Below the pieces are notes generated by a model. That model was not told the DNA's origin. It made no database searches and worked only from the letters and a program-made list of their open reading frames with translations. The translations under genes were made by a program, and so were the position numbers. Below, piece after piece: positions 45,294-63,074 of a DNA stretch of 64,000 nt. Numbering within the stretch: the first letter of the stretch is position 1; every line of letters begins with the position of its first letter. Source of the stretch: a virus; UHGV virus genome UHGV-0057547. One strand, given 5' to 3'.

Positions 45294-45302
45294 TCACTTT
45301 TG

Positions 45303-45657: not shown

Positions 45658-46236
45658 TTATTCCAATTTTTTAATCATATAGTGCGTAATTTTTCTTTTT
45701 CCTTTTTTCTTTCTTTTTAAATCATATCCATGCTCTTTTAATATTTTTTCTAAAGTGGGTAAACCTATTAATCTATTTCTGTTATCCCTAAGGTTATTTT
45801 TAATAATTATATCATTAAAAATAATATCTCTAGTAATCCATTTATTAAGTAGATTATCTTCAATGGAAAGGTCAATTTTTATATGTTTATGTTTTCTATG
45901 AATAACACTAAGATGACAATGTATACATAATGTTTTATAAGTATAAAACAAGTGTTTTCCTAATACTTTTTCTTCTATGTTTTTCAACTCTAATTTTGTA
46001 TAATTATCTATTGTTTTATATTCTTCTAGTCCTAACTCAATTAAAGTATCTTTTACCATATTAGCAAATGGATAAATGTGATGAACTTGTAAATCTTCAA
46101 TTCCACCGCATTGTTCACATTTATTCTTTTTAACTAACTTTACAAACTTATACCAAACTTTTATCCTTATATAATTGTTTAATGTTTGTTTTCTTTTTTC
46201 ATTATTTAACATTCCTTTTTTAATTATAATATTCAC
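45658..46236 (-). CDS. HNH endonuclease
   Basis: CEQCGG...LQVHHIYPF...CIHCHLSVIH. Confidence 0.65.
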   Translation of the reverse strand: MNIIIKKGMLNNEKRKQTLNNYIRIKVWYKFVKLVKKNKCEQCGGIEDLQVHHIYPFANMVKDTLIELGLEEYKTIDNYTKLELKNIEEKVLGKHLFYTYKTLCIHCHLSVIHRKHKHIKIDLSIEDNLLNKWITRDIIFNDIIIKNNLRDNRNRLIGLPTLEKILKEHGYDLKRKKKGKRKITHYMIKKLE

Positions 46237-46239
46237 CTT

Positions 46240-47307
46240 TTATTTTTTATTATAAATATACATTTTGTAGAAATTATCCCAAATTTGATAGTATTCTTCA
46301 GAATATTGAAGTTGTCTTAATCTACTTTCTTTCATAAGTATAGCATATTCAACATTAAATCCATTTCTAGATTTTATTTTTTCATCAATAGTTTTTTTAT
46401 TTTTATTTTGTCTTTTTAGTGCCAAAGATTTTCTAATTTCATATATATCATTTTTAATTATATCCACATCAAAACCATTTAAATAGTTCTTCTTAATATA
46501 TTCTATATCTTTAGTTAGAAAAATTTGAAATGCTTCATAAGTATATTTATATCCTAATTCACAAGTCAATTCAAAACTTAATTCTTTATCAAAGTCTTTT
46601 AATTTTTGAATATTACATTTTATATTTTCCTTTCTGTTGCCATATACTAAATCATTTCTACTTGTAATACTATATTTCTCACATATTCTATTTTCAATAT
46701 CTATTACTTTTCTTAATTGTATAGAATTTGTATTAAGATACACTTCATTATTTTCTAAGTCTACTGCAATTTTCACTTTATACCATTTTATTAAATTATC
46801 TTTTTTTTCAAGTTTATTTAAAGCAGATAAAAAATTTGAATATAAGGCAGAATTTTCAACAGAGAAAAAATCTTTTTTAACTATATCTTTATCGTTTAAA
46901 ATAGGATATTGATAATTAATATTCTTTTTTTCATTTGGATAAAATATTTCTACTAGAGCCATACTAGTTAGCCAATTGTCAAATGTTTTTACACAATATG
47001 TTTCATCTTTAAAATTGCAATAACCTATAATAGAATTTAATAAAGCTTGTTTCATTAAAAAACTCATACTCTTTTCATCCTCCTTAATATCATATACTTT
47101 CCTTTTGGAACTATCAAATTCTATCCCATTGCTCCCCATAAGAGTATAATATACTCTACTTCCTATTTTATTTTTTTCCACTGCACATACTTTGGAAAGT
47201 TTATTGATTAAAGTTTTTTCTTTTTTTCTAAAATTACTATAACTGTAGTCACAAAGTTCACAAAGTTCTTTTGATGTATAAGTCCCATCTTGTAATATTA
47301 CTTCCAT
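46240..47307 (-). CDS. hypothetical protein
   Basis: 355-aa ORF; no recognisable motif. Confidence 0.4.
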   Translation of the reverse strand: MEVILQDGTYTSKELCELCDYSYSNFRKKEKTLINKLSKVCAVEKNKIGSRVYYTLMGSNGIEFDSSKRKVYDIKEDEKSMSFLMKQALLNSIIGYCNFKDETYCVKTFDNWLTSMALVEIFYPNEKKNINYQYPILNDKDIVKKDFFSVENSALYSNFLSALNKLEKKDNLIKWYKVKIAVDLENNEVYLNTNSIQLRKVIDIENRICEKYSITSRNDLVYGNRKENIKCNIQKLKDFDKELSFELTCELGYKYTYEAFQIFLTKDIEYIKKNYLNGFDVDIIKNDIYEIRKSLALKRQNKNKKTIDEKIKSRNGFNVEYAILMKESRLRQLQYSEEYYQIWDNFYKMYIYNKK

Positions 47308-47323
47308 ATCATCAACTCCTTTT

Positions 47324-47387
47324 GTCCCCCAAACAGTTCTCTATATATATTATATTATATATTATATTATAGAACTGTTTGGGGGAC
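47324..47387. repeat. large GC-rich inverted repeat (about 19-bp arms GTCCCCCAAACAGTTCT / AGAACTGTTTGGGGGAC around a 25-nt TATAAT-like AT loop)
   Basis: Read directly; exceptionally GC-rich arms for this genome; abuts the RBS of gene 46240..47307. Confidence 0.6.
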
Positions 47388-47489
47388 ATTATTTTTATAT
47401 ATTTATATATATTATACTATAAATTTTATTAAAAGTCAATAATAAAAATAAAAAAAAGAAAGGCTATTTAAACCTTTCTTTTATATGAA

Positions 47490-48065
47490 TTAAACATTAA
47501 ACATTAAATCACCTAAGCATAAAAGAAAATCTTTTTCTAATTCCCAGTTATCCCATATTAAAACATCATATTCATTTTTTGTATGTCCTTCATATCCTTT
47601 TTCACAATATAACCAAGTTATTAATTCACCATCGGCTTCTCTGTAAGTTGCTCTATGTGCCACTACTGTTTCTAAATAATTTGTATCATGTAAAAAATCT
47701 TCATTTTTTAAATCTTCTTCTGTTAATTTGTCTTTTGCTATTTTTAAAACAAATATATCATTACAGTTTTCTATATCTTCATCTTTATAACCTAAAGTCA
47801 CTGTTGCTTCATAATTATCATCCAATTCTTCTATATCTACATTAATCTTATCTATATCTTTAGCAGAATCTAAATATAATTTTTTATTATCATTTAATTC
47901 ATTATATTGTGGCTGATATTCTTCAATGTTTCTTTCGATTTCATTTATTATATTTTCTTTTAACAATTTTTCACCTTGTTCTATTTGGTTATTAGAACAT
48001 CCTATCATAGATATGGCCATTAGACCTCCTAAAATCAATCCTAAGCCCTTTCTAAATACTTTCAT
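47490..48065 (-). CDS. lipoprotein
   Basis: Signal peptide plus lipobox MKVFRKGLGLILGGLMAISMIGCS. Confidence 0.55.
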   Translation of the reverse strand: MKVFRKGLGLILGGLMAISMIGCSNNQIEQGEKLLKENIINEIERNIEEYQPQYNELNDNKKLYLDSAKDIDKINVDIEELDDNYEATVTLGYKDEDIENCNDIFVLKIAKDKLTEEDLKNEDFLHDTNYLETVVAHRATYREADGELITWLYCEKGYEGHTKNEYDVLIWDNWELEKDFLLCLGDLMFNV

Positions 48066-48158
48066 GAATAATTCCTCCTTTAACCTTTAAAATTCATTTA
48101 AATCAATTATATCCCATTATAGGACAGAATATACAACTGAGGATATTAAATATCCTCT

Positions 48159-48314
48159 TTATTTGTTTTTATCAGGTAGACAAACTATAACTAATAGTGC
48201 GAAAAATCCAAAGAAAAATCCTAATAATAACCAAGCTACAGTACTTCTACCTTTTTCAGTAGCAATAAGACAACATCCAATTGCAAATAAAATACTCCAA
48301 ATTAATATAGCCAT
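48159..48314 (-). CDS. small membrane protein (51 aa)
   Basis: Hand-translated MAILIWSILFAIGCCLIATEKGRSTVAWLLLGFFFGFFALLVIVCLPDKNK. Confidence 0.4.
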   Translation of the reverse strand: MAILIWSILFAIGCCLIATEKGRSTVAWLLLGFFFGFFALLVIVCLPDKNK

Positions 48315-48380
48315 AATTTCAACTCCTTTTTAAATTTTATATTTTGTTATCAACTGAGGATATTAAATATCCTCTTTAAT

Positions 48381-48983
48381 TTAATATGTTATTAAATCCA
48401 ATTCTTCCATTTCGTTTAATAAGTCATAATCGCATACATCTTTATAATAGCCATTTTCATATTTAAATAAATTTATCTCATCGCTTAAAGCATTTACTTC
48501 TACATAATATATTTCATCATTTAATTCAACTTCTACTGATTTAGAACATTCTAAGAATAATTCTAAAAATTCTTCTTCATAATTAAATTTCAAATACATC
48601 CATTCAGAATATCCAACTCTTACATCTCCACGTCCACAATGAACTCTAAATCCAACTATATATTCATCTTCTTTAGTATCATAATAAGTTCTAAAATCAA
48701 TATGATTAATTAATGGTGCATTCCAGTTATAAGTATTATCGGCAGTTATTTCTTCTATCCAACCTTCATCAAGTCCTATTTCTAAATAATCATCAATATA
48801 ATATTCATAATCAGTTTCTTCTTCTTTATCCCATATAATACCATTAATAACTTCATAAGGTTCTAAAACATTTAATATATCCATTATATCAACTGTCAAT
48901 TCATTTTCTTTTATATTATAAGTTCCTTCTAAGCATTTTTTTACATCTTCTATTTTTGTTCTTCCAAACATATAAACCTCCAA
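48381..48983 (-). CDS. hypothetical acidic protein
   Basis: 200-aa ORF; no recognisable motif. Confidence 0.4.
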   Translation of the reverse strand: MEVYMFGRTKIEDVKKCLEGTYNIKENELTVDIMDILNVLEPYEVINGIIWDKEEETDYEYYIDDYLEIGLDEGWIEEITADNTYNWNAPLINHIDFRTYYDTKEDEYIVGFRVHCGRGDVRVGYSEWMYLKFNYEEEFLELFLECSKSVEVELNDEIYYVEVNALSDEINLFKYENGYYKDVCDYDLLNEMEELDLITY

Positions 48984-49220
48984 GTTTAAAGTCCTAAAGA
49001 CTATTTATTTTTTTATTTATACTTATATTATATAGTATAATTTATATCATGTCAACTATTTTTAAAAAAATATTTTAAATTTTTTATTTTGTTTTTATTG
49101 ATTGTTAATAACTGAGAACATTAAATATCCTCTTTATACTATATATTATATATTAGTTTATATGATATGTCAATATAATATTAAAAAAATATAGAGAAAA
49201 AATCTCTATATTTTTTATAT

Positions 49221-50051
49221 CTATGCCAATTGTTGTAAATCAGTTTTATTTATTTCTATTTTTAAAATTTTACTTAATGCCATTATGCCTTTAGGAGTGA
49301 TTTTAAGATTACTATAATTATGACCTTCTTTCTCTCCAACTATTACCTTAAACCACGTTTTATCAACTTCAGAATACGGTAACCAACTTTTGCCTTGCTT
49401 GAATATAATTCTATTTTCATTTAATGTTTTATTAAATTGTTGTGCTGATTTAAATTTAAATAATTTAGCAACTTGAGTTGATGTATATAATCCATTGCTA
49501 TTCATAAAATCATCAAAATAATTTACTTTAGGTTTATCTTTTTCTATTTTTTCTAATAATGGTTTCTTTTCTAGTTTTGCTAATTCTTTTGATGCTACTA
49601 TTCCCTCTTGTCCACCATTATAGATATCTAGTAATAATTTTGCTTTTAATTGTTCATCAGAATTTATTACTTCTCTCATTGCAAAATATTCTCTTCTTAA
49701 TTGTTTTCTTATTTCTTTTGCTTTTTCAGTTTTCATGAATCCAACCAATAACATATAACCTTGTTCAGATAATAAATAGCAATTTTTTTGTCTATTATTA
49801 GTTATAAATCCTAAAACCTTAGCAAGGTTTAAGGATTTTTCATCAGACATCAAATCCAATAAATCAATTCCTATTTCAAATTCATCTATATGTTCATTTA
49901 TTAATGTATTAACTTTATCCAATCTAGTATCATGTATTTCAGATATTGTTTTAGCTAAGATAGCTTTTTGACCTTCACCAAATCCACTTTCTACAACAGG
50001 TATTTCTTTACCCATAAAATCTTGTGTGCCATTAACTTTCAATTCATTCAT
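49221..50051 (-). CDS. antirepressor-like protein (paralogous N-terminus with 53650..54756)
   Basis: NGTQDFMGKEIPVVESGFGEGQKAILAKTISEIHD vs NGTQDFMGVKIPVIEGGFGEGKRCLTDKVISEIHN. Confidence 0.4.
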   Translation of the reverse strand: MNELKVNGTQDFMGKEIPVVESGFGEGQKAILAKTISEIHDTRLDKVNTLINEHIDEFEIGIDLLDLMSDEKSLNLAKVLGFITNNRQKNCYLLSEQGYMLLVGFMKTEKAKEIRKQLRREYFAMREVINSDEQLKAKLLLDIYNGGQEGIVASKELAKLEKKPLLEKIEKDKPKVNYFDDFMNSNGLYTSTQVAKLFKFKSAQQFNKTLNENRIIFKQGKSWLPYSEVDKTWFKVIVGEKEGHNYSNLKITPKGIMALSKILKIEINKTDLQQLA

Positions 50052-50167
50052 ATTACCAGCTCCTTTTATTCTTATTTGATTATATTATACTTATGCCTTT
50101 ATTAAAAGTCAATAAAAACCTAAAAATAAATTTTAGGTTTCATAACTGAGGATTAATTAAAACCCTC

Positions 50168-50602
50168 TTATTTTACTTTATGTCCATTTATGCTATAAGT
50201 ATGAGTTTTGCCTTTATTGTCAATTCCTTTCACTGTCACCTTATAAGTTCTATATTCTTTTAAATCTTTTTCCATATTTGTTCCATGTAATTTGTTAGCT
50301 ACTTGTTTTACTATCTTCTTAGTTTTAGAACTGTTTAAGTTGCTTCTAAATTTAACTACATATTCTTTACTATTCATTTTTAAACTATAACTTGTTATTC
50401 TTAAATATTTTAATACTTCTTTATTTTCTCTTTTTTCTATGCTGTCAAGTGTTATGTAAGTTCTTCCTTTTGCTCCTTGAATTACTTTAGCATTAATTAT
50501 TACTGTATTTCCTAAAACCATTAAACCTATTAAACCTACCATAGTAATTTTTTTTATTAAATTTTTCATAATATCAAATCTCCTTTTTATTTTTTTATTC
50601 AC
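50168..50602 (-). CDS. secreted/membrane-anchored hypothetical protein
   Basis: N-terminal hydrophobic segment after a basic stretch. Confidence 0.4.
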   Translation of the reverse strand: MNKKIKRRFDIMKNLIKKITMVGLIGLMVLGNTVIINAKVIQGAKGRTYITLDSIEKRENKEVLKYLRITSYSLKMNSKEYVVKFRSNLNSSKTKKIVKQVANKLHGTNMEKDLKEYRTYKVTVKGIDNKGKTHTYSINGHKVK

Positions 50603-50623
50603 CTTTTGGGTGATAACTGAGGA

Positions 50624-50815
50624 TTATAAAATCCTCTTAAAATAAAAATTGAAGTTCATTCTATTAATGTCATCATGTATCATGTCATCGTGGACTTTTA
50701 CCCACTCATCGGATACACTGCTTAACAAATCCTCTATGCCTTCATTGAAATAGCTTAAATAAAAATTGTCAAATTTAATTGCGTTCATATCCAACTCTCT
50801 ATCCTCTGAAAACAT
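50624..50815 (-). CDS. small hypothetical protein immediately 3' of RNA element copy 8
   Basis: Probable ATG start MFSEDREL...; the last codons and the stop lie within a conserved hairpin. Confidence 0.3.
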   Translation of the reverse strand: MFSEDRELDMNAIKFDNFYLSYFNEGIEDLLSSVSDEWVKVHDDMIHDDINRMNFNFYFKRIL

Positions 50816-50842
50816 ATTATTTTTTGCTTCTACTGTCAATAG

Positions 50843-50952
50843 GTTTCAGTGCTCATTAGTAAGCTTCCCTGTTCAACGTGTTCTCTTTCGTTTTAAACTA
50901 CTCAAGTTTTTTACAACACTCCAAGGGCGTAAATTCGGAACTGAACTTTCCT
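50843..50952 (-). ncRNA. conserved structured RNA element (copy 8)
   Basis: Promoter TTGACATTATATATAAGCTAGTATATAAT immediately upstream. Element ends GCACUGAAAC about 30 nt before the next ATG. Confidence 0.55.
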
Positions 50953-51045
50953 ATTTATATTATATACTAGCTTATATATAATGTCAACTGAAAACTTAAA
51001 AATAAATTTTAAATTTTCTCACTGAGGATATTATTAAATATCCTC

Positions 51046-51303
51046 TTAATACCATTTTCCGTATCTACTTTCATATTCATCTAGTGTTATTATACTAAAA
51101 TCAATCTCTGAATCTACCTCTGATATTTCAACTATATAAGGTTTTCTATTGATAAAAACTTTTGTATCTGAAACATATTTTATATTGTCTAAAACCTTTT
51201 TTAAATTTTGTTTATTAAGTTTATCTAGCATATTATCATATATACCTAATGTATACCCTTCACTTTTTATTTTATTTATTATTATTTCCTTATTTGTTTT
51301 CAT
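51046..51303 (-). CDS. hypothetical protein
   Basis: 85-aa ORF, cassette region. Confidence 0.4.
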   Translation of the reverse strand: MKTNKEIIINKIKSEGYTLGIYDNMLDKLNKQNLKKVLDNIKYVSDTKVFINRKPYIVEISEVDSEIDFSIITLDEYESRYGKWY

Positions 51304-51416
51304 TTTTAAAATCCTCCTAATTCATTTTTATACTATAATTGTATCATAGTATTTATCTATTGTCAAGTAAAAACTTAAAAATAATTTTTATTTTTCTTAA
51401 CTTTCATAACTGAGGA

Positions 51417-51842
51417 TTAATTAAAATCCTCCAAAGATATTAGTATTTGTTTAAATACATTATCATTGCTTAAATCTTTTATTATATTTTTTAAATCATT
51501 ATTTTTATTACTGTCTCTTATTATTAATTCTATGTCTTCTTCTATGTAATCTATGCTGTCATAGACATATTCTTCATAGTCACATCCCATATAGCTTACT
51601 AGTTCTCCATTATCATTATAATGAAATAAATCTTCATTAGAATTAAAATTACCATTTTCAATTTTATCTGCTATTTCTAGTGGCTCTAAACCTTCCATTA
51701 ATTCGTTGAATTCTTCCATATCATGAACTATTAACCAATCTAAATAAAAACTATTATAACTTATAACTTCAACAAGTTCTAATAAATCAGTGTAATTACT
51801 TCTATCCTCTAAATTTTTTCTTAAAGATTCAAATTTATTCAT
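51417..51842 (-). CDS. hypothetical acidic protein
   Basis: 141-aa ORF, cassette region. Confidence 0.4.
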   Translation of the reverse strand: MNKFESLRKNLEDRSNYTDLLELVEVISYNSFYLDWLIVHDMEEFNELMEGLEPLEIADKIENGNFNSNEDLFHYNDNGELVSYMGCDYEEYVYDSIDYIEEDIELIIRDSNKNNDLKNIIKDLSNDNVFKQILISLEDFN

Positions 51843-51979
51843 AATAACAACTCCCTTATTTATTTTTTTTATTTATCTTTATACTATGTATTATATACTA
51901 GTAATTATATATTGTCAAGTGAAAATCTAAATTTTATTTTTAAATTTTCATAACTGAGAATACAGAATTGTATTCTCTT

Positions 51980-52309
51980 TTAGATATTTAAGAATTCATT
52001 ATCTTCTAACATTGTTACTTTATAATCATAATATTTTTTTATAATGTTGATATCGTTTTTATCATATGCTATTATATAAATATTACCTTCTACTTCAGCA
52101 ACTTCTCCAATAATAAAATTATTAAATCGTTCCAATGTTAAATCTTCCAATACAGAATCATCTTCTTCAAATAATTTTTCTTTTTCTTTTTCATCTTTTG
52201 CTAATAAATCAACTAAACATTCAAAATGTAAACTATTTTCTATAAGTTTTCCATCAGCTATAACAAAAGCATTTTTTCTATATAATTCATAATCATATTC
52301 TATTTTCAT
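51980..52309 (-). CDS. hypothetical protein
   Basis: 109-aa ORF, cassette region. Confidence 0.4.
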   Translation of the reverse strand: MKIEYDYELYRKNAFVIADGKLIENSLHFECLVDLLAKDEKEKEKLFEEDDSVLEDLTLERFNNFIIGEVAEVEGNIYIIAYDKNDINIIKKYYDYKVTMLEDNEFLNI

Positions 52310-52621
52310 AATAATAACTCCCTTTAATTTATTTTTTATTTATCTTTATACTATGTATTATATATTAGTGATTATATATTGTCAAGCATTTAAATAAAAA
52401 AATCCATATATTTTTACATATATGGATTTTAGATATTTTATTTAAAATAATAATTCATATTATTTACAATTAAGTTAGTAACATATAGTAAACCTTTTTT
52501 AGTCATACAGATACCCTTAGAATTATTATTTATATTTTCATATATAAATAAATTTTTCTTTTTATTTTTATCTGTTAATCTTTCACTTGTTTTGAATTGC
52601 TTTTGTTTTATCATAAATTTA

Positions 52622-53383
52622 TTAAATAATGTTATTCCTATTTTTTTTATGATAGAATTCATATTTATTAAATAAATCTACGTATTCTTTTTTACCCATA
52701 ATTACATTATCATCTAAACTATTTAAATAAGTTTTAAACTTATCTAAATTAGTTATATTAATTACTGTCATATCATTATTTTTAGTAGTTAAAGTTTTAG
52801 AACTTTTATTTAAATCATCAATCTTATCAGATAAACTTTCTATCATTTTTAATAATTCATTTATTGTTTTATTTTGTTCTTCTATTTTATCAAGTAGTTC
52901 CGTATTGTTTACTGTTAGTGTTTCATTATTAGAATTTCCATTTAAAATTATGTCAAGCATTTTACTTCTTATTTCTTGTGCTACTTTGCTATCTCTTAAT
53001 AACATTGCCATATTTAAAAAACATCTTTTATTTACCAATGTATTACTTCTATTATTAAATTTTCTATTATCTGATATAAAATAACCTTTATAGTTATGAA
53101 GGGAAATATTGTCCCCTCCTAAAAATTCTCTTGTTTCCTTACCTTTTAATATTAATAAACCATTTTTAATTAATTCTCTTTTATTGTTTTGAACTAATTT
53201 TTTAATACATTCATAATCAACTTCAAAATATTTAGCCACTCTGTCAAGTGTTTCATATTCCATATTATTAATTGTAGTTATAGTTTTATATTTATTCATT
53301 ATATCTAAACTTTTATTATTATTTAATATCTCTTGTCTTAATTCCTCTTTTTCTAAAATATCATTTAATACCATTATTACCAA
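52622..53383 (-). CDS. hypothetical protein
   Basis: 253-aa ORF; no recognisable motif. Confidence 0.4.
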   Translation of the reverse strand: MVIMVLNDILEKEELRQEILNNNKSLDIMNKYKTITTINNMEYETLDRVAKYFEVDYECIKKLVQNNKRELIKNGLLILKGKETREFLGGDNISLHNYKGYFISDNRKFNNRSNTLVNKRCFLNMAMLLRDSKVAQEIRSKMLDIILNGNSNNETLTVNNTELLDKIEEQNKTINELLKMIESLSDKIDDLNKSSKTLTTKNNDMTVINITNLDKFKTYLNSLDDNVIMGKKEYVDLFNKYEFYHKKNRNNII

Positions 53384-53649
53384 CTCCTTTTATATTTTTT
53401 ACTTATATTATACTTATACATTTATTAAAAGTCAATGAATACTCATAAAAATATTTAATTTTCCATAAATATTTTATAGAAATATAAACTCAAATCTAAA
53501 TTTAATTTTTGTCAAATTTTGTCGATTAATACCAAATAAAAAAACCCAAAGCTAAATTTAATTTTAACTTTGGGATAACTGAGGATTAATATAATCCTCT
53601 ATAAATAATACTTGTAATTAATTTTACTGTTTATTATATTACCAACTCC

Positions 53650-54756
53650 CTATTGTAATAATTCTAACAATTTATTTAAACCATCATCTGTTATTTTACT
53701 GTATTTATAATATCTATACATATAATTATTATCTCTAGCATATTGTGTTTCAATTTCATTTTTATCTAACCAATTTATTTTTTTAAGTTTATTCATTAAG
53801 TATTCTAAACTAATGTCATTGTTAAGGTTATTATTTAATATTTTTAATGCTTGTCTATATGTGTATCCTTCATTTGTTTTTCTTCTCTTTTTTTCTTCTG
53901 TCGTTCTATTAATTATTTTAGATATTTGTTGCATTAATTTTAATATGTCATTATCTATGATATAATCTACCATTTTAGGATTCCATGTATAAACGTTTGT
54001 TATGCTTGCTCTACATAAACCGTTTTTAATAAATTCATTTTCAAATTTATCATTATGTATAAATCTAGTTTTTTTATTTATTAATTTATTTTCACCATAT
54101 CCTTTTATTTCTAATGCTTCAAAGAAAATTTTTGTAAACAATTTCTTTGAAGGTAATTGTTTTATTAAATCTATTGTTGATAAATAATTTTCTATTCTTT
54201 CATTTTCTAATTCTATTTTATCAATTTCCTTTTGTTTTTCAGCCCCATATTCTTCTTTTAGTTCACCGAATAATTTTGTATTTAAAACTCTATCTTCTTC
54301 TGTATTTGAAAATATAGATTTATAAAATGTTTCAGCTAATATTTTTTCTTTTGAATTTACAATTTCTCTCATAGTAAAATAATCATCAACTAATTTATCA
54401 TGTATTTCCCAGGCTAAATCTGTATCCATTATTTTTATAAGTTTTGCATAACCTCTTTCTGATAATAAGTAAATATTTTTAGCTTGTGTTATAGATTGTT
54501 TAGCGTAACCCATTTTTGTCAACGTATCGTTGTCGTCGATACGTTTAAGATTTATAAAATCTACACCTTCTTTAAATCTTTTGATGTTTTTATTAAGTGT
54601 TTCTCTAACATGAATCATTTTCATATTATGTATTTCAGATATAACTTTATCAGTTAAACATCTTTTTCCTTCACCAAAACCACCTTCTATCACTGGTATT
54701 TTAACTCCCATAAAATCTTGTGTGCCATTAATTATGATATTATTCATATTTACCAA
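53650..54756 (-). CDS. antirepressor-like protein (paralog of 49221..50051 at the N-terminus)
   Basis: Shared N-terminal domain; see 49221..50051. Confidence 0.4.
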   Translation of the reverse strand: MVNMNNIIINGTQDFMGVKIPVIEGGFGEGKRCLTDKVISEIHNMKMIHVRETLNKNIKRFKEGVDFINLKRIDDNDTLTKMGYAKQSITQAKNIYLLSERGYAKLIKIMDTDLAWEIHDKLVDDYFTMREIVNSKEKILAETFYKSIFSNTEEDRVLNTKLFGELKEEYGAEKQKEIDKIELENERIENYLSTIDLIKQLPSKKLFTKIFFEALEIKGYGENKLINKKTRFIHNDKFENEFIKNGLCRASITNVYTWNPKMVDYIIDNDILKLMQQISKIINRTTEEKKRRKTNEGYTYRQALKILNNNLNNDISLEYLMNKLKKINWLDKNEIETQYARDNNYMYRYYKYSKITDDGLNKLLELLQ

Positions 54757-55142
54757 CTCCTTTATATATTTGATTATATTATACTTAACATATTATTAAA
54801 AGTCAATAAATACTCATAAATATATTTAATTTTCCATAAAAATATATATCTCTGAGCCATTTAAATGGATTTTAAGCTTGTTATAACTACTTAATGGATA
54901 AACTATTCATTAAGTTATAAACTCATATTTAAATTTAATTCTTGTCAATTCTGTTTAAAAATAGGCATAAAAAAAATCCTCTACCATAATAGTAGAGGAT
55001 TAATTAGTTTCTAATAATAAAGTCCCTTCTGATTTTATTTTGTTACTTCCATAAGTATCTCTTATAGAACTCATATTTTTTCCTTATTTATTTCTTTAAA
55101 TACTTCTTCATTTTCCTTTCTATCAGGGTGAAACTTCATAGC

Positions 55143-55254
55143 GTTTCAATGCTTGTAACAAGCTTCCCTATTCAACGTGTTCTTTTTCACTTTATAAGCT
55201 ACTCAAGTTTTTGTAACACTCCCAGGGCGTAAATTCGGAACTGAACTTTCCTAC
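55143..55254 (-). ncRNA. conserved structured RNA element (copy 9)
   Basis: Promoter 55270-55320 upstream. GUAGGAAAGUUCAGUUCC-GAAUUUACGCCCUGGGAGUG...GAACACGUUGAAUAGGGAAGCUUGUUACAAGCAUUGAAACGC. Followed only by tiny ORFs (21 and 23 aa). Confidence 0.55.
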
Positions 55255-55385
55255 ATGTTATTTTTAATTTTTTATTTTATTTACCTATATTATACTGCTA
55301 TTATTATTAAAAGTCAATAAATATTTTCATTTTTTTATTTAATTTTCACAAAACTTTTTAACTTTCAGCAATAACTGAGGATTAA

Positions 55386-55736
55386 TTAAAATCCTCTATT
55401 TGGGAAAGATAGACTTCTACAGCCTATTATTCTTCCCTTATCATCTCTTACAGATTCATTTACCAAAGCTAAATCAGTTCTAGTTTTGCAAGCATTAGCA
55501 ACCATAGCAGATACAATAAGGATAGTATCAGCTTGTTGTGGAGGTAATCCTATAACATCACCAAAAGTATTGTCAGTTATAGGAATTTCTATACCATCAG
55601 CAATTATACTTCCTGCATCAGTAGTAGTTTGTGATACTCTTATTAAAGTTCCGGAAGCTGGTATGGTAAGTATAATATTATTATCACTATCCATTATATT
55701 AATATCATGAGGCGTACAATTTATTAATTTTTTCAT
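55386..55736 (-). CDS. hypothetical protein
   Basis: 116-aa ORF, cassette region. Confidence 0.4.
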   Translation of the reverse strand: MKKLINCTPHDINIMDSDNNIILTIPASGTLIRVSQTTTDAGSIIADGIEIPITDNTFGDVIGLPPQQADTILIVSAMVANACKTRTDLALVNESVRDDKGRIIGCRSLSFPNRGF

Positions 55737-55845
55737 GATATAAAACCCTCCTAAATATTCTCATTTTTTTATTTAATTCCTATGAAAGTTTTTAACTTTC
55801 AGTAACTGAAAAAGGAATTTAATTTTCCTTTTTCTCGCACATATT

Positions 55846-56145
55846 TTAGGATACATAAGCTACTTGCTCTACTATAAAATTTCTCTTTTCTAACTCATGA
55901 GTTATTTTTTCGCTTTCATTTTTTAGTTTTTTTCTAGCTAAATCATAGAAGTCCCAAAAATACATTAAATTTATATCTATTCTATAACCACTTATTATTA
56001 TTACTTGGTCTTCATATTCTAACTGTAAATCAGCACTTAAATAATCTTCTTCATTGACATATATTGCAACCCTTATATTATCATTATCTTTTCTATTTAT
56101 CATGTTTATAGCTTTTTCAATGCTATTATATCTTATTTTTTTCAT
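55846..56145 (-). CDS. hypothetical protein
   Basis: 99-aa ORF; promoter and RBS upstream. Confidence 0.4.
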   Translation of the reverse strand: MKKIRYNSIEKAINMINRKDNDNIRVAIYVNEEDYLSADLQLEYEDQVIIISGYRIDINLMYFWDFYDLARKKLKNESEKITHELEKRNFIVEQVAYVS

Positions 56146-56274
56146 AATATAAAACCCTCCTAAAATTTTATTTATTAACTATATTATAGCATTTTAGCTA
56201 TATAAAGTCAATAAAATATTTAATTCTCATGAAAGTTTTTAACTTCCATGTAACAGAGGATTATAATTAATCCT

Positions 56275-56514
56275 CTATAAATAGTATTTGTAATTAATTA
56301 TGCTATTCACATAGCAACTTTCAGCAACTTTATATGCATTTAAGCTTCTGCTTATATGCACTCCAAAAGTTCTATTTGCTATTTTAACTGCTTTTGTTAG
56401 ACTTATTAATTCTTGTTCAACTGCATAGTTTAAACAAGGATATAATGCAATAATTGCACGTCTATTGCTTTCAGCTCTAACTATTTTTCCATTTACAACG
56501 AATTTTTTATTCAT
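56275..56514 (-). CDS. hypothetical protein
   Basis: 79-aa ORF; AGGAGGG RBS upstream. Confidence 0.4.
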   Translation of the reverse strand: MNKKFVVNGKIVRAESNRRAIIALYPCLNYAVEQELISLTKAVKIANRTFGVHISRSLNAYKVAESCYVNSIINYKYYL

Positions 56515-56917
56515 ATAAGACCCTCCTAAATATTTCCATTTTTTTATTTAATTTTCATGAAAGTTTTTAGCTTTCATGTTACAGAGGATTTTAATTAATC
56601 CTCTACAAATATTTCTAAGATATCATCTTTAAAATCCCACGCTTCAAGATGCTTATAGCTTACATTATGTTCTTTTGCTTCTTCTCCAATGTCTAAATCA
56701 GATATTCCTTTTATGGTATATCTATTTACTAAATCTTTAAATCCTTCAGTTACTTTAAATTCATATCTTTTCATAATACAAAACCCTCCTAAATATTTTC
56801 ATTTTTTTATTTAATTTTCATTTATATTATATACCAGTTTTTATATAAAGTCAATATATAATATAAAAAAATCCAAAGTTAGGTTTAAATTTAACTTTGG
56901 AATAACTGAAAAAGGAA

Positions 56918-57211
56918 CTAATAAGTTAAAATTCCTTTTTCTTTATAACTTGCCATTTTAAAACCTAAGTTTTCATTTAATGTTTCTATATTGTCTAATA
57001 TGAAAATCTTATCGTCATGATTCAAATATGATATATTATATTCTTTTTCATTGTTTACAGTCCATGATAAAATTATATTTTGTTCTTCCATAGCATTTAA
57101 TAGAATATTAATATTGTTATAATTCTTTTCCTCTGCATAGAAAACTTTTAAGTCTATTTTGTTTATTTCAATTTCTTTTTTCATATATAAAACCCTCCTA
57201 AATATTTTCAT
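56918..57211 (-). CDS. hypothetical protein
   Basis: 97-aa ORF, cassette region. Confidence 0.4.
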   Translation of the reverse strand: MKIFRRVLYMKKEIEINKIDLKVFYAEEKNYNNINILLNAMEEQNIILSWTVNNEKEYNISYLNHDDKIFILDNIETLNENLGFKMASYKEKGILTY

Positions 57212-57267
57212 TTTTTTAATTAATTCTCATGAAAGTATTTAACTTTCACGATTACAGAGGATTATAA

Positions 57268-57654
57268 TTAATCCTCTATTATTTCTTCATATTCTGCAAT
57301 TGTAACTTCATTGTATATTTCATTTACCATATACTCAAAAGCTAACCAACTTAAATTATTTGCATCTACTTCAAAATCAGGACTTAAATTTTCTTTTGTG
57401 CTATTGTATATTTCAAATATTTCTTCCATATGTTTAATGAAGAAACATTTTGTTTCATTAAAGTATATTAATTCTCCTATCATACCACTTGCACACCCAT
57501 ATTGAATTACTTCCTCTAAAAATGTTATTGGATTTTCATAATCATCAATATGATTAAGAATTATATCAATAACATTATCCTTTAATTCGCTTTCTCCATA
57601 CATATTTTCTAAAAAAGTATTTAATTTCATAAAAACCCTCCTAAATATTTTCAT
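57268..57654 (-). CDS. hypothetical protein (paralog of 59621..59986)
   Basis: KLNTFLENMYGESELKDNVIDIILNHIDDYENP vs MLENLYGESELKDNVIDILLDHIEDYEEP. Stop codon sits in a conserved hairpin loop. Confidence 0.45.
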   Translation of the reverse strand: MKIFRRVFMKLNTFLENMYGESELKDNVIDIILNHIDDYENPITFLEEVIQYGCASGMIGELIYFNETKCFFIKHMEEIFEIYNSTKENLSPDFEVDANNLSWLAFEYMVNEIYNEVTIAEYEEIIED

Positions 57655-57709
57655 TTTTTTAATTAATTCTCATGAAAGTATTTAACTTTCACGATTACAG
57701 AGGATTAAT

Positions 57710-58072
57710 TTAATCCTCTAAGCTATACGCCATACACATGTTAAAATCTTTATCCTTATATTGTTCTGAAAAATCAATAACTATGAATTCGCCATTATTG
57801 CTTTTATGTTTATACCATTTTGTACCAGTTAATCCATTTAGCCATGATTTTTTACCTTTGACATCACCTTCTAACATTTCAAATACTACTTCATTATTAT
57901 TATATCTAATACCTTTTCTCTTGCTTATATCTTTTGTTAATTTTACATATTTTTCATTTTCCATATTTAACAATTCATGAGCTTTTTCTAAGCTAACATA
58001 TCCAGTTAAAACTAATTTAGATATACTTTCTCTTAATTCTATCATACCTTGTTTTTTAGTTATTTTTTTCAT
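57710..58072 (-). CDS. hypothetical protein
   Basis: 120-aa ORF, cassette region. Confidence 0.4.
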   Translation of the reverse strand: MKKITKKQGMIELRESISKLVLTGYVSLEKAHELLNMENEKYVKLTKDISKRKGIRYNNNEVVFEMLEGDVKGKKSWLNGLTGTKWYKHKSNNGEFIVIDFSEQYKDKDFNMCMAYSLED

Positions 58073-58190
58073 AATATAAACCCTCCTAAAATTTTATTTA
58101 TTAACTATATTATAGTATAACCACTATATAAAGTCAATAAATATTTTAATTATTACAAAAGTTTTTAACTTTTGTTACTGAAGAAGGATT

Positions 58191-58526
58191 TTATTTTCCT
58201 TCTTCTATGTCTTTATTGAATAAAGATTTTATTTTCTTAGAGAATTTTTTATTACATGTCACGTCATAAAATTTGAATTCATTGTAAAAAGTATATTCTT
58301 TTAATGCTTCAAGGTGTGAATTAATCGCTTGAGTTGTAGAACTTGTATCATAATTGCAATTATCAACAATTATTTTACTTTCAAGCGTATCAATTATCAT
58401 TATTATATTTTCATGATACATTAGATAGTAACTATCATTAATCTTGCTAAATGAATGATTCCCTATTTTCATTTTAATGTTACCTTCCATTATTCCTCTA
58501 AATAATTTTTCACTATATTTTCTCAT
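58191..58526 (-). CDS. hypothetical protein
   Basis: 111-aa ORF; promoter TTGACT-17-TATAAT at about 58105-58135 upstream. Confidence 0.4.
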   Translation of the reverse strand: MRKYSEKLFRGIMEGNIKMKIGNHSFSKINDSYYLMYHENIIMIIDTLESKIIVDNCNYDTSSTTQAINSHLEALKEYTFYNEFKFYDVTCNKKFSKKIKSLFNKDIEEGK

Positions 58527-58644
58527 ATCATACCCTCCTAAAATTCATTTATTAACTATATAATAACATAGTGTTTATATAAAGTCAATAAATATTTTAA
58601 TTATTACCAAAAGTTTTTAACTTTTGGATAACTGAAGAAGGAAT

Positions 58645-58935
58645 TTATTTTCCTTCTTCTTTTCTAAATCTGAACTCAAATATATTTTCTTTTCTATGTC
58701 CTTTGATTAAATCAATCTCACTTTCGCCTTGTTGGTCTGTATTGTGGATTAAATTATATACTAAAAATCCAACTCTTGTATCGCCTTCATATTGAAAATA
58801 AACTAAGTCATTTTTAAAATCAATTCTTATTTTATTTATCCATATATTTTCATTTATTCTTTTTTCTCTTTTAATCATGTCAATTATTTTATCCATATTC
58901 TTTAATATCTCAAGTCTTATTTGTTTTCTATTCAT
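58645..58935 (-). CDS. hypothetical protein
   Basis: 96-aa ORF, cassette region. Confidence 0.4.
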   Translation of the reverse strand: MNRKQIRLEILKNMDKIIDMIKREKRINENIWINKIRIDFKNDLVYFQYEGDTRVGFLVYNLIHNTDQQGESEIDLIKGHRKENIFEFRFRKEEGK

Positions 58936-59062
58936 ATAAAACCCTCCTAAAATTTATTTATTAACTTTATTGTAGTATAACCACTATATAAAGTCAATAA
59001 ATATTTTAATTATTACAAAAGTTTTTAACTTTTGTTACTGAAGAAGGAAAAAATCCTTCTTC

Positions 59063-59305
59063 TTATAAGTTTTCAACTTCTATGCTTGTAATTGTATTTC
59101 CATTGCAAGTTATTAAAAATCCTACTTTACTTTTAAAGGATTTTACAAATAATGCTTGAAAAAAATTACCCTTACAGTATGAACTTTTAGGACTATAGCC
59201 TATACTGTTCATGAAAGGTATAATTCTTTTTTCACCTTTTATAATGTTTATTTCTTTTATTTCCTCTTCACTAAATATTTTTTTCATTGATTCATAATTA
59301 TTCAT
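59063..59305 (-). CDS. hypothetical protein
   Basis: 80-aa ORF, cassette region. Confidence 0.4.
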   Translation of the reverse strand: MNNYESMKKIFSEEEIKEINIIKGEKRIIPFMNSIGYSPKSSYCKGNFFQALFVKSFKSKVGFLITCNGNTITSIEVENL

Positions 59306-59620
59306 AATGTAAACCCTCCTAAATTTTTAATTCAGTAATAAAAATTACTGTTACTGAAGAAGGAAAAAATCCTTCTTCTTATAATGTATCTAAAAAGTTA
59401 TTAACAATTGATATTTCTTTATCGTTTAATAATATTTCAGTATGGCAATATTTAGAATTAATGTAACTATTTTCAAAATGTATATTGTTTTCATGAAGAA
59501 AATCTATTAATAACATAGTGTCCTTTCTATTTAGTTCTATATTATAATATTTTTTCATAATAAAAATCCTCCTAAAATTTTATTTCAGTAATTTAAAATT
59601 ACTGTTACTGAAGAAGAGAA

Positions 59621-59986
59621 TTAAATCTCTTCTTCTTCTTCTTCTTCCATTGTTTCAACTTCATTATATATTTCACTTACCATATACTCAAAAGCTAACC
59701 AGCTTAAATTATTTGCGTTTACTTCAAAATCATCACTTAAATTGTCTTTAAGTTGGTTGTAAATGTCGAATATTTCTTCCATATGTTTAATGAAGAAACA
59801 TTTTGTTTCATTATAGTATATTAATTCAGGTACTGTACCACTAATACAACCATAATTCATAATGTCTTCTAAAAATCCTTTTGGTTCTTCATAGTCTTCA
59901 ATATGGTCTAAAAGGATATCAATAACATTATCCTTTAATTCGCTTTCTCCATATAAATTTTCTAACATATTATTTATTTTTTTCAT
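59621..59986 (-). CDS. hypothetical protein (paralog of 57268..57654)
   Basis: See 57268..57654; C-terminal poly-Glu. Confidence 0.45.
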   Translation of the reverse strand: MKKINNMLENLYGESELKDNVIDILLDHIEDYEEPKGFLEDIMNYGCISGTVPELIYYNETKCFFIKHMEEIFDIYNQLKDNLSDDFEVNANNLSWLAFEYMVSEIYNEVETMEEEEEEEI

Positions 59987-60103
59987 AATAAAAACCCTCC
60001 TAAAATTTATAAATTTTATTTCAGTAACTCAAAATTTATATTTGAATTACTGTCACTGAAAAAGTATAGATTTTATAAAATCCCTTGTTTTTTCTTATAT
60101 TTT

Positions 60104-60436
60104 TTATTCTTCAATTTTAAAATTTTTAATCTCAAGTCCAAAATTTTCTTGTCCCTTTTTATTTGTGTATTTTCTTATTTTAGCTCTGAAACTTATTTTT
60201 TGTCCTTCTTGAATATTTTCTTTAAACATTTTTTTAGTAACGTTGCTTATCATATCGCATAAGCAGTGACAGCATATAAAATCATTATCTTTATATATAT
60301 TGTTGATAAGTGCTATTTTTCTGCACCCTCTTTTTTCTATTTTGTTGAAAGTTCCTTTGAATTCTACAATTGATTCATTGTATTTTTCAAGTCCTTTTCT
60401 ATATTCATATCTCCCACTTTTACTATTTACATACAT
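60104..60436 (-). CDS. hypothetical Cys-containing protein
   Basis: 110-aa ORF; CCHCLC cluster. Confidence 0.4.
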   Translation of the reverse strand: MYVNSKSGRYEYRKGLEKYNESIVEFKGTFNKIEKRGCRKIALINNIYKDNDFICCHCLCDMISNVTKKMFKENIQEGQKISFRAKIRKYTNKKGQENFGLEIKNFKIEE

Positions 60437-60892
60437 TTACAAAACCTCCCTTTTTTAAAACAAGAGATTTTATAAACTCTATACCTTTTCCGATTAACTG
60501 AAAAAGGATAAAATCCTTTTTCCGTTTTTAGGAGGAGGGAACATATTCAATTATATAATAGGATTTTTACCATTGCACTTCATACGCCCTTGTAACTGTT
60601 CAATGGCTGTTGGATAATAAAATCCAACTTTTGATTATTATCTTATAACCTTTTGAGTACTTTTCAGGAGTTCCGACTTAAAAAGTATGTTTTCGTAAGT
60701 ACTTATTAATCGTCGATTAACAGTTTACCTATATAACCTTTGGTAATAGGGTTTTTACCAAAAGCACCTTTTAAGTTTTTCCTCTTGTCAGTTGCTTAAA
60801 AGTTTTAAGATAATGCTTAGCTCTAAAAAATGCTAAGCTTCTATTATATACCTTATGCGTATAGCTTAAGGATTTTTTTTATTACTTTTTCT

Positions 60893-61240
60893 TTAATTGT
60901 ATCATGTCTTTTATTCAATGTCAACTGCTTTTTTAAAAATCTTTTAAAACTTTTTAAGTAGTTCCTAAGTTGCTTTATTAACTTAATTGTAGTAGTTCTT
61001 TTATTCAATGTCAACTATTTTTTAAAAGTTTTTTAAATTTTTTTTAAGTAGCTCTTAAACTGCTTTCCTAAGTTGCTTTTGTTTTATTATCTTAATTGTA
61101 GCAGGTCTTTTATCTAATGTCAAGTACTTTTTTAAAACTTTTTAAAACTTTTTTAACTGCCTTTCCTAAGTTGCTTTTGTTTTATTAACATAATTGTAGC
61201 ATCACTTTATTGATTGTCAACTATTTTTTTATGTTTTTTT
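60893..61240. repeat. about 3.5 tandem direct repeats of a roughly 100-bp unit (iteron-like) in the divergent intergenic region
   Basis: Unit TAATTGTAG...TCTTTTATTCAATGTCAACTRYTTTTTAAAARYTTTTAAAACTTTTTAAGTAGYTCYTAAGTTGCTTT repeated at about 60893, 60998, 61093 and partially 61192. Confidence 0.6.
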
Positions 61241-61572
61241 ATGTTTTTTGTATACATTAAACAATATACAAAATACAATATTCATTATAATGTATACAAT
61301 ATATCTATATTCTTTTTAGTATCAGTTCTAAAATCATTTTTCTATTTTATTTTTTTTCTACTGTTGCCGTATGACGTGATATAAGGCGTTTTAAAGACTT
61401 TTAAGATAGTTAGTGGATAATTAATCAATTAGATAATATATTCTCTTATATTGTCTTCTATTGCCTTATATTGATATATGAAAAAAAATAGAAAAACTTT
61501 TGAATAATTGTTGACATTAGATAATATTATGCTAACATTAAGATAATAAATAAATAAAGGAGATTGATAAGC

Positions 61573-61782
61573 ATGAAAAAATATAGTATAGAAATAAAGG
61601 GCAATATATGGACAAAGGAATTAATTGTTAATATATGCAAGGAAAAGAGACTATTTAAATATAATGTAACAGAATTATTAAGTGGATTAAAATACTGTAT
61701 ACAATTGAATGATTTAAGCTTTTGGAACTATCATTATTTTAAAAAACTTAAAAGAATAGAAGAAAAAAAATAGTAGACTTTT
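61573..61782 (+). CDS. small basic hypothetical protein (plus strand; first rightward gene)
   Basis: ATG at 61573 with AAAGGAG 8 nt upstream. Shares the leader TAAGATAATAAATAAATAAAGGRGATTGATAA with gene 63137..63298. Confidence 0.45.
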
Positions 61783-61800
61783 CTACTATTTTTTTATTGT
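61770..61800 (+). terminator. rho-independent terminator (plus strand)
   Basis: TAGTAGACTTTTCTACTA hairpin followed by TTTTTTTATT. Confidence 0.5.
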
Positions 61801-62900
61801 ATATATGAATAACTGTTCATATGTTTAATTGTATACAACATGTAATATATAGTATAATGTATCATGTATTAAATATCTTGTATGTAATATTATGCATAAT
61901 GTATTTTGTATGCAATATATAATATACTGTATACATTATTATGTATATTGTATTATATTAGTTTACATGTTAACTATTCTCATATTGATAATAAATAATA
62001 GTTGACAAATAAACAAGTGTTCTGCAATCGAACGTAGCATACTTTATGGTGTTTGTCAACAGTTAATTTTGTCCGAAAAGTTTAGTATAAGTAAACATTG
62101 CAAACGTGAAACCATTGAAAATACTATATTATCATTTTGATAAATTTACAAATACTAAGAAAAATTCATGACCTATTTAAATCGATTCTAAGAGGGCGAA
62201 CAAAATCCCTCTTTATAGTTAATTCTTTATATAAAGTCACCCTATACACTGCTTTAAAATCGACAGTAAAAGGTCGGTATGTATTTTTAAAAAGGTGACT
62301 ATAGTTTTTATTGTATGCATTTTATTGTATACAATTTATTATCATAATGATAATATATGAATAGGTATTCAAGTATTCATATATAGAATTGTATATTATA
62401 TGAATACTTATTCATATGTTTAATTATCAATATGTAAATAGTAAACATGTTAACTATTATCAATATGATAATATATGAGTGACTGTTCATATATTATGAT
62501 TAATGTATACAATATAATATATGGTGTATACGTATGAATAAATGTTCATATATTACTATGCATAATGCATAGTGTATAATGTTTAATGTATACAGTATTA
62601 TATATTATGTATGTTATACTATGTTTAATGTATACAATATATTATATAATGTATAGTGTATGATATACTAAGTACTATGTATGCTGTATAGTGTGCATTG
62701 CATACAATATGATATACTATGTATAGTGTACTATGTACTATGTATACAATATATAGTTAACATGTTAACTACTATCAATATGATAACATATGAGTGACTG
62801 TTCATACAATCAACTGTTATTAATATAACATATGAGTGACTGTTCATAGGTTCATATGATAGTATGATAGAACAACTGTTCCTATGATGTTCTATGTTAG
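61800..62900. repeat. repeat-dense noncoding region: many copies of TGTATACAAT (GTATAC palindrome), ATGTTAACAT/GTTAAC palindromes, and direct repeats GAGTGACTGTTCATA and (A)ATGTTAACTA(T/C)TATCAATATGATAA
   Basis: Read directly; no ORF of 60 aa or more; palindromic motifs recur more than 15 times. Confidence 0.55.
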
Positions 62901-63074
62901 AAGAACATATGATACAAAGAACGAACTGCTTAGGATTGATTGTAAGGCGTTGGCGTTGTGTCCTTCTTATGTTATATCGTTGAGAGTGTATCTCTTCTTA
63001 TATTGCCTTGTATTGTCTTATAATAGTATATGTAAAAAATAGTGTATAGAGAAAAAAATTTTCTTAAAAATTGT

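Follow-up and report, generated by a model that had tools for sequence, protein, structure and literature searches.

The 64,000-nt stretch of virus genome UHGV-0057547 analyzed here (the window) carries a strand-specific family of small hairpins, hereafter H1, that sit at the ends of small genes in a region of about 43-60.5 kb. On balance we favor reading them as RNA gene-end hairpins within repeated regulatory cassettes of an ORFan-rich early region, resembling the promoter-early stem-loops (PeSLs) of T4-type phages (Arbiol et al. 2010, PMC2839356; Comeau et al. 2014, PMC4122927). H1 would then be the stem-loop half of a composite unit comprising the hairpin or hairpins, often a host-type consensus promoter, and a conserved ribosome-binding site (RBS), and such units would separate the ORFan genes of a hyperplastic early region in a phage of about 204 kb.

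The family was scanned for as AC(T/A) followed directly by a perfect hairpin with a stem of at least 7 bp beginning with G and a loop of 3-14 nt. This strict pattern matches 27 times on the plus strand versus once on the minus strand, compared with 0.55 +/- 0.65 in 100 dinucleotide-preserving shuffles in which both strands were counted together, and 26 of the 27 plus-strand matches fall within 43.08-60.52 kb. Including three imperfect copies (49113, 50147 and 60058), the window holds 29 H1. An earlier reading of this DNA, made from the sequence only, had described about 22 such hairpins at 48135-60530; we count 23 there, and find that the family also reaches beyond that range, at 43080, 43480, 43920, 44633, 45312 and 45565. 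In the coding sense (minus strand), H1 consists of a purine-rich arm, a 3-14 nt loop and a pyrimidine-rich arm, followed by C-(A/U)-G-U (C-W-G-U). The flank (U)CAGUUA, which had been called invariant, proves to be the commonest form only; CAGUAA, CUGUAA, CAGUGA and CAGUUG are also seen, and what is invariant is C-W-G-U. The stop codon lies within the H1 stem or loop in 10 genes of the window, including the two for which this had been proposed (57268.. and 50624..), and in roughly nine further genes H1 starts 0-3 nt past the stop codon.

Among 50,697 phage records, Megablast with 48-61 kb as the query found no match, and the commonest H1, used as an exact pattern against 185,579 genomes representing bacterial species, returned scattered single matches and an unrelated Pedobacter repeat; no motif-rich genome was found among them, which rules out H1 as a generic terminator type of the host. 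The equivalent small-gene region of phage phiCD211, the closest named relative by DNA polymerase, has just 9 hairpins in 31.7 kb with the conserved flank absent, and the H1 family is therefore lineage-specific.

Close relatives were available for comparison as five contigs of metagenome 3300045988, retrieved by exact pattern, and a sixth relative, L114, from another sample. The window and the five contigs together contain 138 copies of H1, which fall into 53 distinct sequences and use about 20 different stems, and L114 adds 19 further copies, all of them perfect. Covariation of the stems, already noticed within the window, is confirmed at orthologous gene ends, where stems differ yet are fully paired (GAGAATACA/TGTATTCTC versus GAGAATATA/TATATTCTC; GAAAAAGGAA versus GAAGAAGGA; GAGAAGAAA versus GAGGAAAT). 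In an alignment of 61 distinct copies, both sides have changed at six of the seven basal stem pairs, a figure that is descriptive only, the copies having been chosen for pairing, so that the orthologous comparisons are the fairer ones. Family members show seven stem mismatches, every one of which is G.U when read in the coding sense and would be A.C on the other strand; given transitions, seven of seven has a chance of about 0.01. Most likely, therefore, it is the mRNA that folds, or at least the coding strand.

Two unit architectures can be distinguished. Class A comprises six H1 copies at 43.08-45.59 kb of the form GAGAAGAA-loop-UUCUUCUC-AGUUUUUUU, in which the stem is followed by AGU5-7 and a -35 box lies 17-18 nt past the stem; judged by these features they are canonical intrinsic terminators fused to the next promoter, where transcription would be expected to end. 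Class B comprises 23 copies at 48.1-60.5 kb that have no U-tract (1-4 U within the 9 nt after the stem) and predicted stabilities of -7.5 to -13.5 kcal/mol. The earlier suggestion that the hairpins are terminators clearly holds for the six copies with a U-tract; for class B H1 a classical terminator role is weak. A second hairpin, H2, with a stem of 7-12 bp and a predicted energy of -5.6 to -14.4 kcal/mol, starts 4-6 nt past H1 in 18 of the 23 class B units and in none of the six class A units; three of these (core 50116-50140, 53545 and 56872) carry U5-7 and are canonical terminators. H2 had been reported from about 55.7 kb onward, where it is present, and it occurs at 48108, 50108, 50599, 50990, 51914 and 53545 as well. 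Folding of five representative H1+H2 units gave two independent hairpins with no enclosing stem; the z-score is -2.2 for the unit at 55808 and between -3.6 and -5.9 for the other four.

Downstream of the hairpins, 12 class B units continue with a TTGACx-17-TATAAT promoter and 11 directly with the RBS. Over all 29 units, TTGACx-17-TAxAAT is found within 60 nt of H1 in 18 and the conserved RBS in every one; H1 can therefore be no tight terminator at the 11 promoter-less units. A terminator scan found 22 sites versus 1.3 expected. The promoter scan was overall little above shuffles (181 versus 159), and its nine 12/12 matches and many 11/12 matches are, every one, on the coding strand ahead of cassettes. 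When aligned from H1 to the start codon, class B units prove to be paralogues with the order H1, CAGU(A/U)A, H2, AAUUAAAUA, optional promoter block and UUUAGGAGGGUUUUAUAUUAUG, and identity inside subfamilies (59040/58634/58180/56255; 57699/57256/56583/55808; 59610/59356) is 81-95% over 70-110 nt. The units are repeated in direct orientation, so that every gene is flanked by direct repeats. The hairpins, promoters and units are as follows.

43080-43100, minus strand: class A H1, GAGAAGAAA/TTTCTTCTC then AGUUUUUUU; -35 box 17-18 nt downstream
43480-43499, minus strand: class A H1, canonical terminator plus promoter
43920-43940, minus strand: class A H1
44633-44651, minus strand: class A H1
45312-45331, minus strand: class A H1, at the end of the RAGATH-18 transcription unit at 45.4 kb
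45565-45585, minus strand: class A H1, GGGAAGAAA variant
48139-48157, minus strand: class B H1, GAGGATAT; H2 at 48108-48133
48356-48374, minus strand: class B H1, RBS next
49113-49134, minus strand: class B H1, imperfect with two G.U (coding sense); perfect GAGAATAT/ATATTCTC in relative L114
50147-50167, minus strand: class B H1 with one G.U; H2 with a U-run, core 50116-50140, whole fold 50108-50146
50619-50636, minus strand: class B H1, holds the stop codon of gene 50624..; H2 at 50599-50613
51024-51045, minus strand: class B H1; H2 at 50990-51018, then the promoter of a RAGATH-18 unit
51412-51431, minus strand: class B H1, downstream promoter
51956-51977, minus strand: class B H1, GAGAATACA, compensatory variant in related contig c163643; H2 at 51914-51954
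53581-53599, minus strand: class B H1; H2 at 53545-53574, a canonical terminator (U7)
55377-55396, minus strand: class B H1, downstream promoter
55808-55834, minus strand: class B H1, GAAAAAGGAA, no promoter; H2 at 55783-55801
56255-56276, minus strand: class B H1, AGAGGATTA, CUGU flank, promoter; H2 at 56228-56250
56583-56604, minus strand: class B H1, no promoter; H2 at 56556-56578
56908-56941, minus strand: class B H1, promoter; H2 at 56872-56901, a canonical terminator (U7)
57256-57277, minus strand: class B H1, holds the stop codon of gene 57268..; H2 at 57227-57251; homology with four relatives stops at 57261
57699-57719, minus strand: class B H1; H2 at 57670-57694; the unit that follows shares 95% identity with the one after 57256
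58180-58205, minus strand: class B H1, GAAGAAGGA; H2 at 58155-58175; promoter at 58137-58109
58634-58659, minus strand: class B H1, promoter; H2 at 58603-58632
59040-59062, minus strand: class B H1, promoter; H2 at 59015-59035
59356-59378, minus strand: class B H1, no promoter; H2 at 59333-59350
59610-59635, minus strand: class B H1, GAAGAAGAGA, stop codon within; H2 at 59586-59604
60058-60097, minus strand: long imperfect H1-like hairpin, CAGU flank; H2 at 60022-60052
60500-60522, minus strand: first H1 of the array, GAAAAAGGAT, downstream of tandem promoter repeats
43033-58997, minus strand: about 22 sigma-70-type promoters (TTGACA/T-17-TATAAT; nine 12/12) from the promoter scan, ahead of most cassettes
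58137-58109, 56854-56826, 56211-56183, 51918-51890 and 45293-45265, minus strand: promoter examples from the promoter scan
55734-60097, minus strand: paralogous intergenic units (H1, C-W-G-U linker, H2, AAUUAAAUA, optional promoter, UUUAGGAGGGUUUUAUAUUAUG) from the alignment

In the reading we favor, H1 followed by AGU5-7 at 43-45.6 kb would act as an intrinsic terminator whose U-tract probably also supplies the next promoter with its A/T-rich upstream element, and H1 without a U-tract at 48-60.5 kb would most likely be a leaky attenuator and a barrier to 3'-to-5' exonucleases. The single-stranded C-W-G-U linker, together with H2 4-6 nt on, may form an endonuclease processing module; after cleavage in the linker the upstream message would end in H1 and the downstream message would start with H2. 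We infer termination, processing and stabilization in this scheme, as well as the recombination mechanism proposed below. We also considered, as a speculative role for the purine and pyrimidine arms, mimicry of Shine-Dalgarno and anti-Shine-Dalgarno sequences.

An overlapping explanation, which differs solely in the role that is taken as primary, holds that H1, linker and H2 are mainly an endoribonuclease site for host RNase Y or a phage enzyme (putative) and not a terminator: a cut after the invariant G of the 4-6-nt linker, guided by H2, would convert polycistronic early transcripts into stable monocistronic pieces. It is notable for this explanation that the invariant G stands in an A/U-rich linker between two hairpins, that read-through is required at the 11 promoter-less units, and that RNase Y favors a G right before the cut with a guide duplex about 6 nt downstream (PMC5449607). 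H2 occurs only where the U-tract after H1 is missing, and an RNase Y-type role would explain its appearance in exactly those units. That the 23 U-tract-less H1 serve as RNase processing sites, one of the functions proposed earlier, is plausible on these sequence features; that this should be their main purpose seems to us doubtful, however, as the guide element of the sae site is a 24-bp duplex and so longer than any H2 stem, and the class A copies, which look like plain terminators and have no H2, keep the same AGU.

The genes lying between the units are exchanged among relatives. Gene-order maps of the five related contigs are syntenic and differ by single-gene gains, losses and replacements and by one relocated duplicate: gene cluster 1 is swapped for clusters 33 and 34, cluster 14 for cluster 36, and cluster 10 is present, absent or swapped for an unrelated gene, while clusters 35, 37, 38 and 43 differ in presence or absence and a copy of cluster 16 has moved to between clusters 1 and 2. 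With junctions in the intergenic units, this is the array of exchangeable gene cassettes that the sequence-only reading had envisaged. The ends of homology blocks are nearly all intergenic, and about a quarter of the distinct ends are no farther than 8 nt from an H1, for example 57261 (four genomes), 51961 (two genomes) and 48164, 49140, 55835, 56605, 58172, 50613 and 43943; other ends are at H2, promoters, the RBS or first codons, or the borders of RAGATH-18 elements. Breakpoints and hairpins thus coincide in part, and the hairpin is not thereby marked as the site: BLAST block ends cluster at H1 because nothing conserved follows it before the unique coding sequence begins, and being the edge of a conserved unit it offers no proof of crossover in the hairpin, for which reason we dropped that argument.

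In chained alignments, several indels in one genome are matched by 27-133-nt overlaps in the other, the signature expected of homologous recombination between direct repeats, here whole intergenic units. A worked case is contig c166499, which is without gene 10 and whose single unit at this place matches the post-gene-9 unit up to H1 and the post-gene-10 unit from H2 on, so that the crossover falls between H1 and H2. Chimeric hairpins, which frequent loop crossovers between unlike stems would be expected to produce, are essentially absent. The idea of a recombination hotspot accordingly survives for the repeated unit as a whole and fails for the hairpin itself. We propose that the directly repeated units offer homology for recombination, since 70-150 nt of them recur at 81-95% identity around every gene, and that exchange between them would delete, duplicate, relocate or replace single genes plus their regulatory signals; alongside this we note the phage's Sak4-like annealase (27558-28616).

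It is highly improbable that the exchange is instead site-specific, with H1 as a DNA-level, attC-like site that folds from single-stranded DNA and is cut by a tyrosine recombinase between G and TT in the flank. The cassettes are co-oriented, each with a terminal hairpin and a conserved GTT-containing flank, and several homology blocks stop inside H1; the junctions nevertheless spread across the whole unit, with the long overlaps typical of homologous exchange, half the cassettes have their own promoter, and the G.U mismatches in the coding sense point to RNA. Three consecutive tyrosine-recombinase-like genes are present at 32.5-35.4 kb (32523-35393, minus strand), of which the third alone resembles XerC/D, yet the best of the three reaches 38 bits versus a cut-off of 265 on the integron-integrase model TIGR02249. 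Sites of the attC type have paired R''/R' (RYYYAAC / GTTRRRY) and L''/L' boxes and extrahelical bases and measure 57-141 nt; in H1, R''/R' pairing is absent, there are no extrahelical bases apart from G.U pairs, and hairpins are 18-40 nt long with stems of 7-12 bp. We regard the site-specific explanation as largely refuted.

The window also encodes components of an RNA-guided nuclease system. Eight RAGATH-18 RNAs, which are guide-RNA scaffolds of IS607-type TnpB nucleases (PMC11061315), are detected by Rfam, all on the coding strand, together with a TnpB open reading frame (ORF).

17556-17621, minus strand: RAGATH-18 RNA (Rfam)
30983-31047, minus strand: RAGATH-18 RNA (Rfam)
37317-37379, minus strand: RAGATH-18 RNA (Rfam)
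41362-41424, minus strand: RAGATH-18 RNA (Rfam)
41694-41759, minus strand: RAGATH-18 RNA (Rfam)
41833-43014, minus strand: TnpB ORF, 306 bits on the NCBIfam guided_TnpB model
45407-45471, minus strand: RAGATH-18 RNA (Rfam)
50865-50927, minus strand: RAGATH-18 RNA (Rfam)
55164-55227, minus strand: RAGATH-18 RNA (Rfam)

The best solved relative of TnpB is 8iaz, and conservation of the RuvC D/E/D positions predicts a nuclease-competent protein. Seven of the eight scaffolds stand alone behind a consensus promoter and end in ..A(C/U)UGAAAC; the roughly 20 nt that come next, the guide, differ from one scaffold to another. Relatives without a given element have matching sequence at the 'empty' site, preceded by TTA-like bases and not by AGGAG, and relatives also have elements at sites that are empty in the window. 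At gene 19, the donor allele shows in order the intact gene (with a 6-nt deletion in the target), H1, a promoter, the scaffold, and a relic of the recipient-type gene end as the guide; gene 19 of the window has this target uninterrupted (TTTA followed by AATATGAAAATGGCTATTAT). To judge from this order, the arrangement looks like intronless homing. A limited literature search found no paper on such an arrangement in phages.

It is tempting to speculate, though we think it rather unlikely, that the H1 units are the passive half of a driven shuffling, in which TnpB with its RAGATH-18 guides (from at least eight units, promoter-driven and dispersed between the cassettes) would cut 'empty' alleles of co-infecting relatives at a TTA-like motif, not the published AGGAG/GAGGG, donor repair would co-convert neighboring cassettes, and the exchange would resolve in the H1/H2/promoter units. 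If true, RNA-guided 'intronless homing' would be the engine of cassette mosaicism in a large phage. The co-located TnpB and guide units could make it directly testable whether RNA-guided nucleases drive phage mosaicism. It is highly improbable that H1 copies derive from a mobile element that depends on hairpins, as its ends or relics (IS200/IS605-type, or like repetitive extragenic palindromes), or that they are targets linked to TnpB and RAGATH-18. In favor of this are the shared window and the TTA that precedes the inferred targets of four guides, the H1 flank often being AGTTA. A TTA is too short to mean anything at 24% G+C, H1 is tied to stop codons and the coding strand and has no partner end, and a Y1 transposase is absent from the window. 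What follows the H1 flanks matches none of the nine guide sequences, and we therefore rejected a link between the flank and TnpB targeting.

Several observations weigh against the PeSL-like reading that we favor. Termination, attenuation and processing are all roles that we infer, and class B H1, with its few U and modest stability, makes a weak classical terminator. The invariance of C-W-G-U could stem partly from concerted evolution of paralogous units and not from function. The covariation alignment consists of copies selected for pairing, the position of BLAST block ends at H1 is in part an artefact, H1 being where the conserved unit stops, and a number of mosaic junctions are accounted for by the borders of RAGATH-18 elements (45384, 50842, 50952, 55266/55271 and 48463) and not by these units.

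The phage genome is about 204 kb, the region having been found by exact-protein look-up on contigs of about 195-204.5 kb from several samples; at least 20 public contigs carry it. The window has 24% G+C. All its genes between 0.1 and 60.5 kb are on the minus strand, and they encode a split DnaE-type polymerase, a RecJ-like exonuclease, a DnaB-like helicase, a ligase, HNH endonucleases and two sigma-like proteins. The polymerase is 64% identical to those of C. difficile phages phiCD211 and phiCDIF1296T and 55% identical to that of C. botulinum phage c-st; phiCD211 and c-st, both clostridial, are the closest named relatives by this protein. It is divided between two minus-strand ORFs (phrog_405; 3032-4564 and 4986-6668) about 420 nt apart, Rfam at gathering threshold detects no intron in it, and the phiCD211 homologue matches the N-terminal part only. 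In phiCD211, the equivalent small-gene region has an annotated CRISPR array (119021-119312) and IS605-type transposase genes. The cassette genes are mostly ORFans, 17 of 20 being without a PHROG, and the few with any domain are ORF6N/KilAC antirepressor-like, SprT-like or DUF7222; both paralogue pairs recognized earlier are genuine, 57268/59621 being DUF7222 genes and 49221/53650 ORF6N antirepressor-like.

Other repeats lie in and around the array. A 34-nt inverted repeat (60058-60091 / 60457-60490, 91% complementary) surrounds a 110-amino-acid ORFan gene at 60104-60436, and one of its arms is the core of the long H1-like hairpin at 60058-60097; the repeat might form a long-range RNA stem, or it might bound a small unit that is mobile or can invert. 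Two direct copies of GCC(C/T)ACTTTTGTGC at 45590-45655 lie just upstream (coding sense) of the H1 at 45565, after gene 45658-46236, and relatives differ at these copies. At 60860-61250 there are tandem repeats of about 90-110 bp, about four by eye, each seemingly with a minus-strand TTGACA promoter-like box; for 60893-61066, Tandem Repeats Finder gives 1.9 copies of a 90-nt unit. The boxes point into the cassette array and look like a cluster of strong early promoters. Beyond them, 61250-63500 is gene-poor and very A/T-rich, with degenerate short repeats around TGTATACA(A/T)T at periods of 7, 14, 21, 28, 35 and 42 and two small plus-strand ORFs behind near-identical promoter/RBS blocks (61564 and 63128), and may serve as an origin or in packaging or regulation.

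Among known systems, integrons resemble this array in that their gene cassettes, too, are co-oriented and have at the 3' end an element able to form a hairpin. The H1 flank, however, is conserved on one side only, and in place of promoter-less cassettes expressed from a common Pc, 12 of the 23 class B units and all class A units have their own promoter; these promoters, the shortness of the hairpins, the lack of R''/R' pairing and the lack of an integrase at IntI level exclude an integron. Like the units here, the T7 RNase III sites and the Staphylococcus aureus sae RNase Y site are structured, lie between early genes that are transcribed together, and would leave behind a 3' hairpin with a protective role. 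An RNase III site of the T7/SP82 type (a duplex of about 20 bp, or upper and lower stems) is excluded by the folds, which are two short hairpins without an enclosing stem. In sae, the site has a stem-loop on either side, of which the upstream one is a leaky terminator (PMC5449607), and the context of the H1/H2 linker (a G, an A/U-rich single strand and a downstream duplex) fits such a site, at which cleavage would be putative. Intrinsic terminators are matched by the six class A copies, with a stem-loop and AGU5-7 right after the stop codon on the coding strand; at least 5 U in 8 are found in class A and the three U-rich H2, and not in the 23 class B H1, 11 of which precede genes without their own promoter.

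The likeness to PeSLs is closer. Both are composite intergenic elements of a stem-loop terminator or attenuator, an A/T-rich stretch, a consensus sigma-70 promoter and a Shine-Dalgarno (SD) sequence, and both are repeated over about 100 bp in hyperplastic regions of small ORFans, where they mark insertions, deletions and replacements between close relatives. Here stem-loop, sigma-70 promoter and SD occur together in 18 of the 29 units, the repetition (81-95% over 70-110 nt) is in a region as rich in ORFans as described above, and indels and replacements are bounded by units with junction overlaps of 27-133 nt. The polymerase places this phage in an unrelated lineage near phiCD211 and c-st (55-64% amino acid identity) and not among the T4-type myoviruses, and the units are therefore analogues of PeSLs and not homologues. 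Their stems are purine/pyrimidine A/U-rich instead of polyG/polyC, overlap the stop codon and are followed by the invariant C-W-G-U on the 3' side; most U-tract-less units have a second hairpin, and the promoter is missing in 11 of 29. Relative to PeSLs, three things are new: the signature of the hairpin, the presence of a second one, and variants that lack a promoter. Most documented cases of regulatory-cassette shuffling come from T4-type phages that infect Gram-negative hosts, and its presence, with a signature of its own, in an unrelated and very A/T-rich lineage of about 204 kb suggests convergent evolution of a means by which large phages trade accessory genes without breaking expression. 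The array also offers a compact model, open to testing, for the possible punctuation of early polycistronic messages in a host of the Firmicute type.

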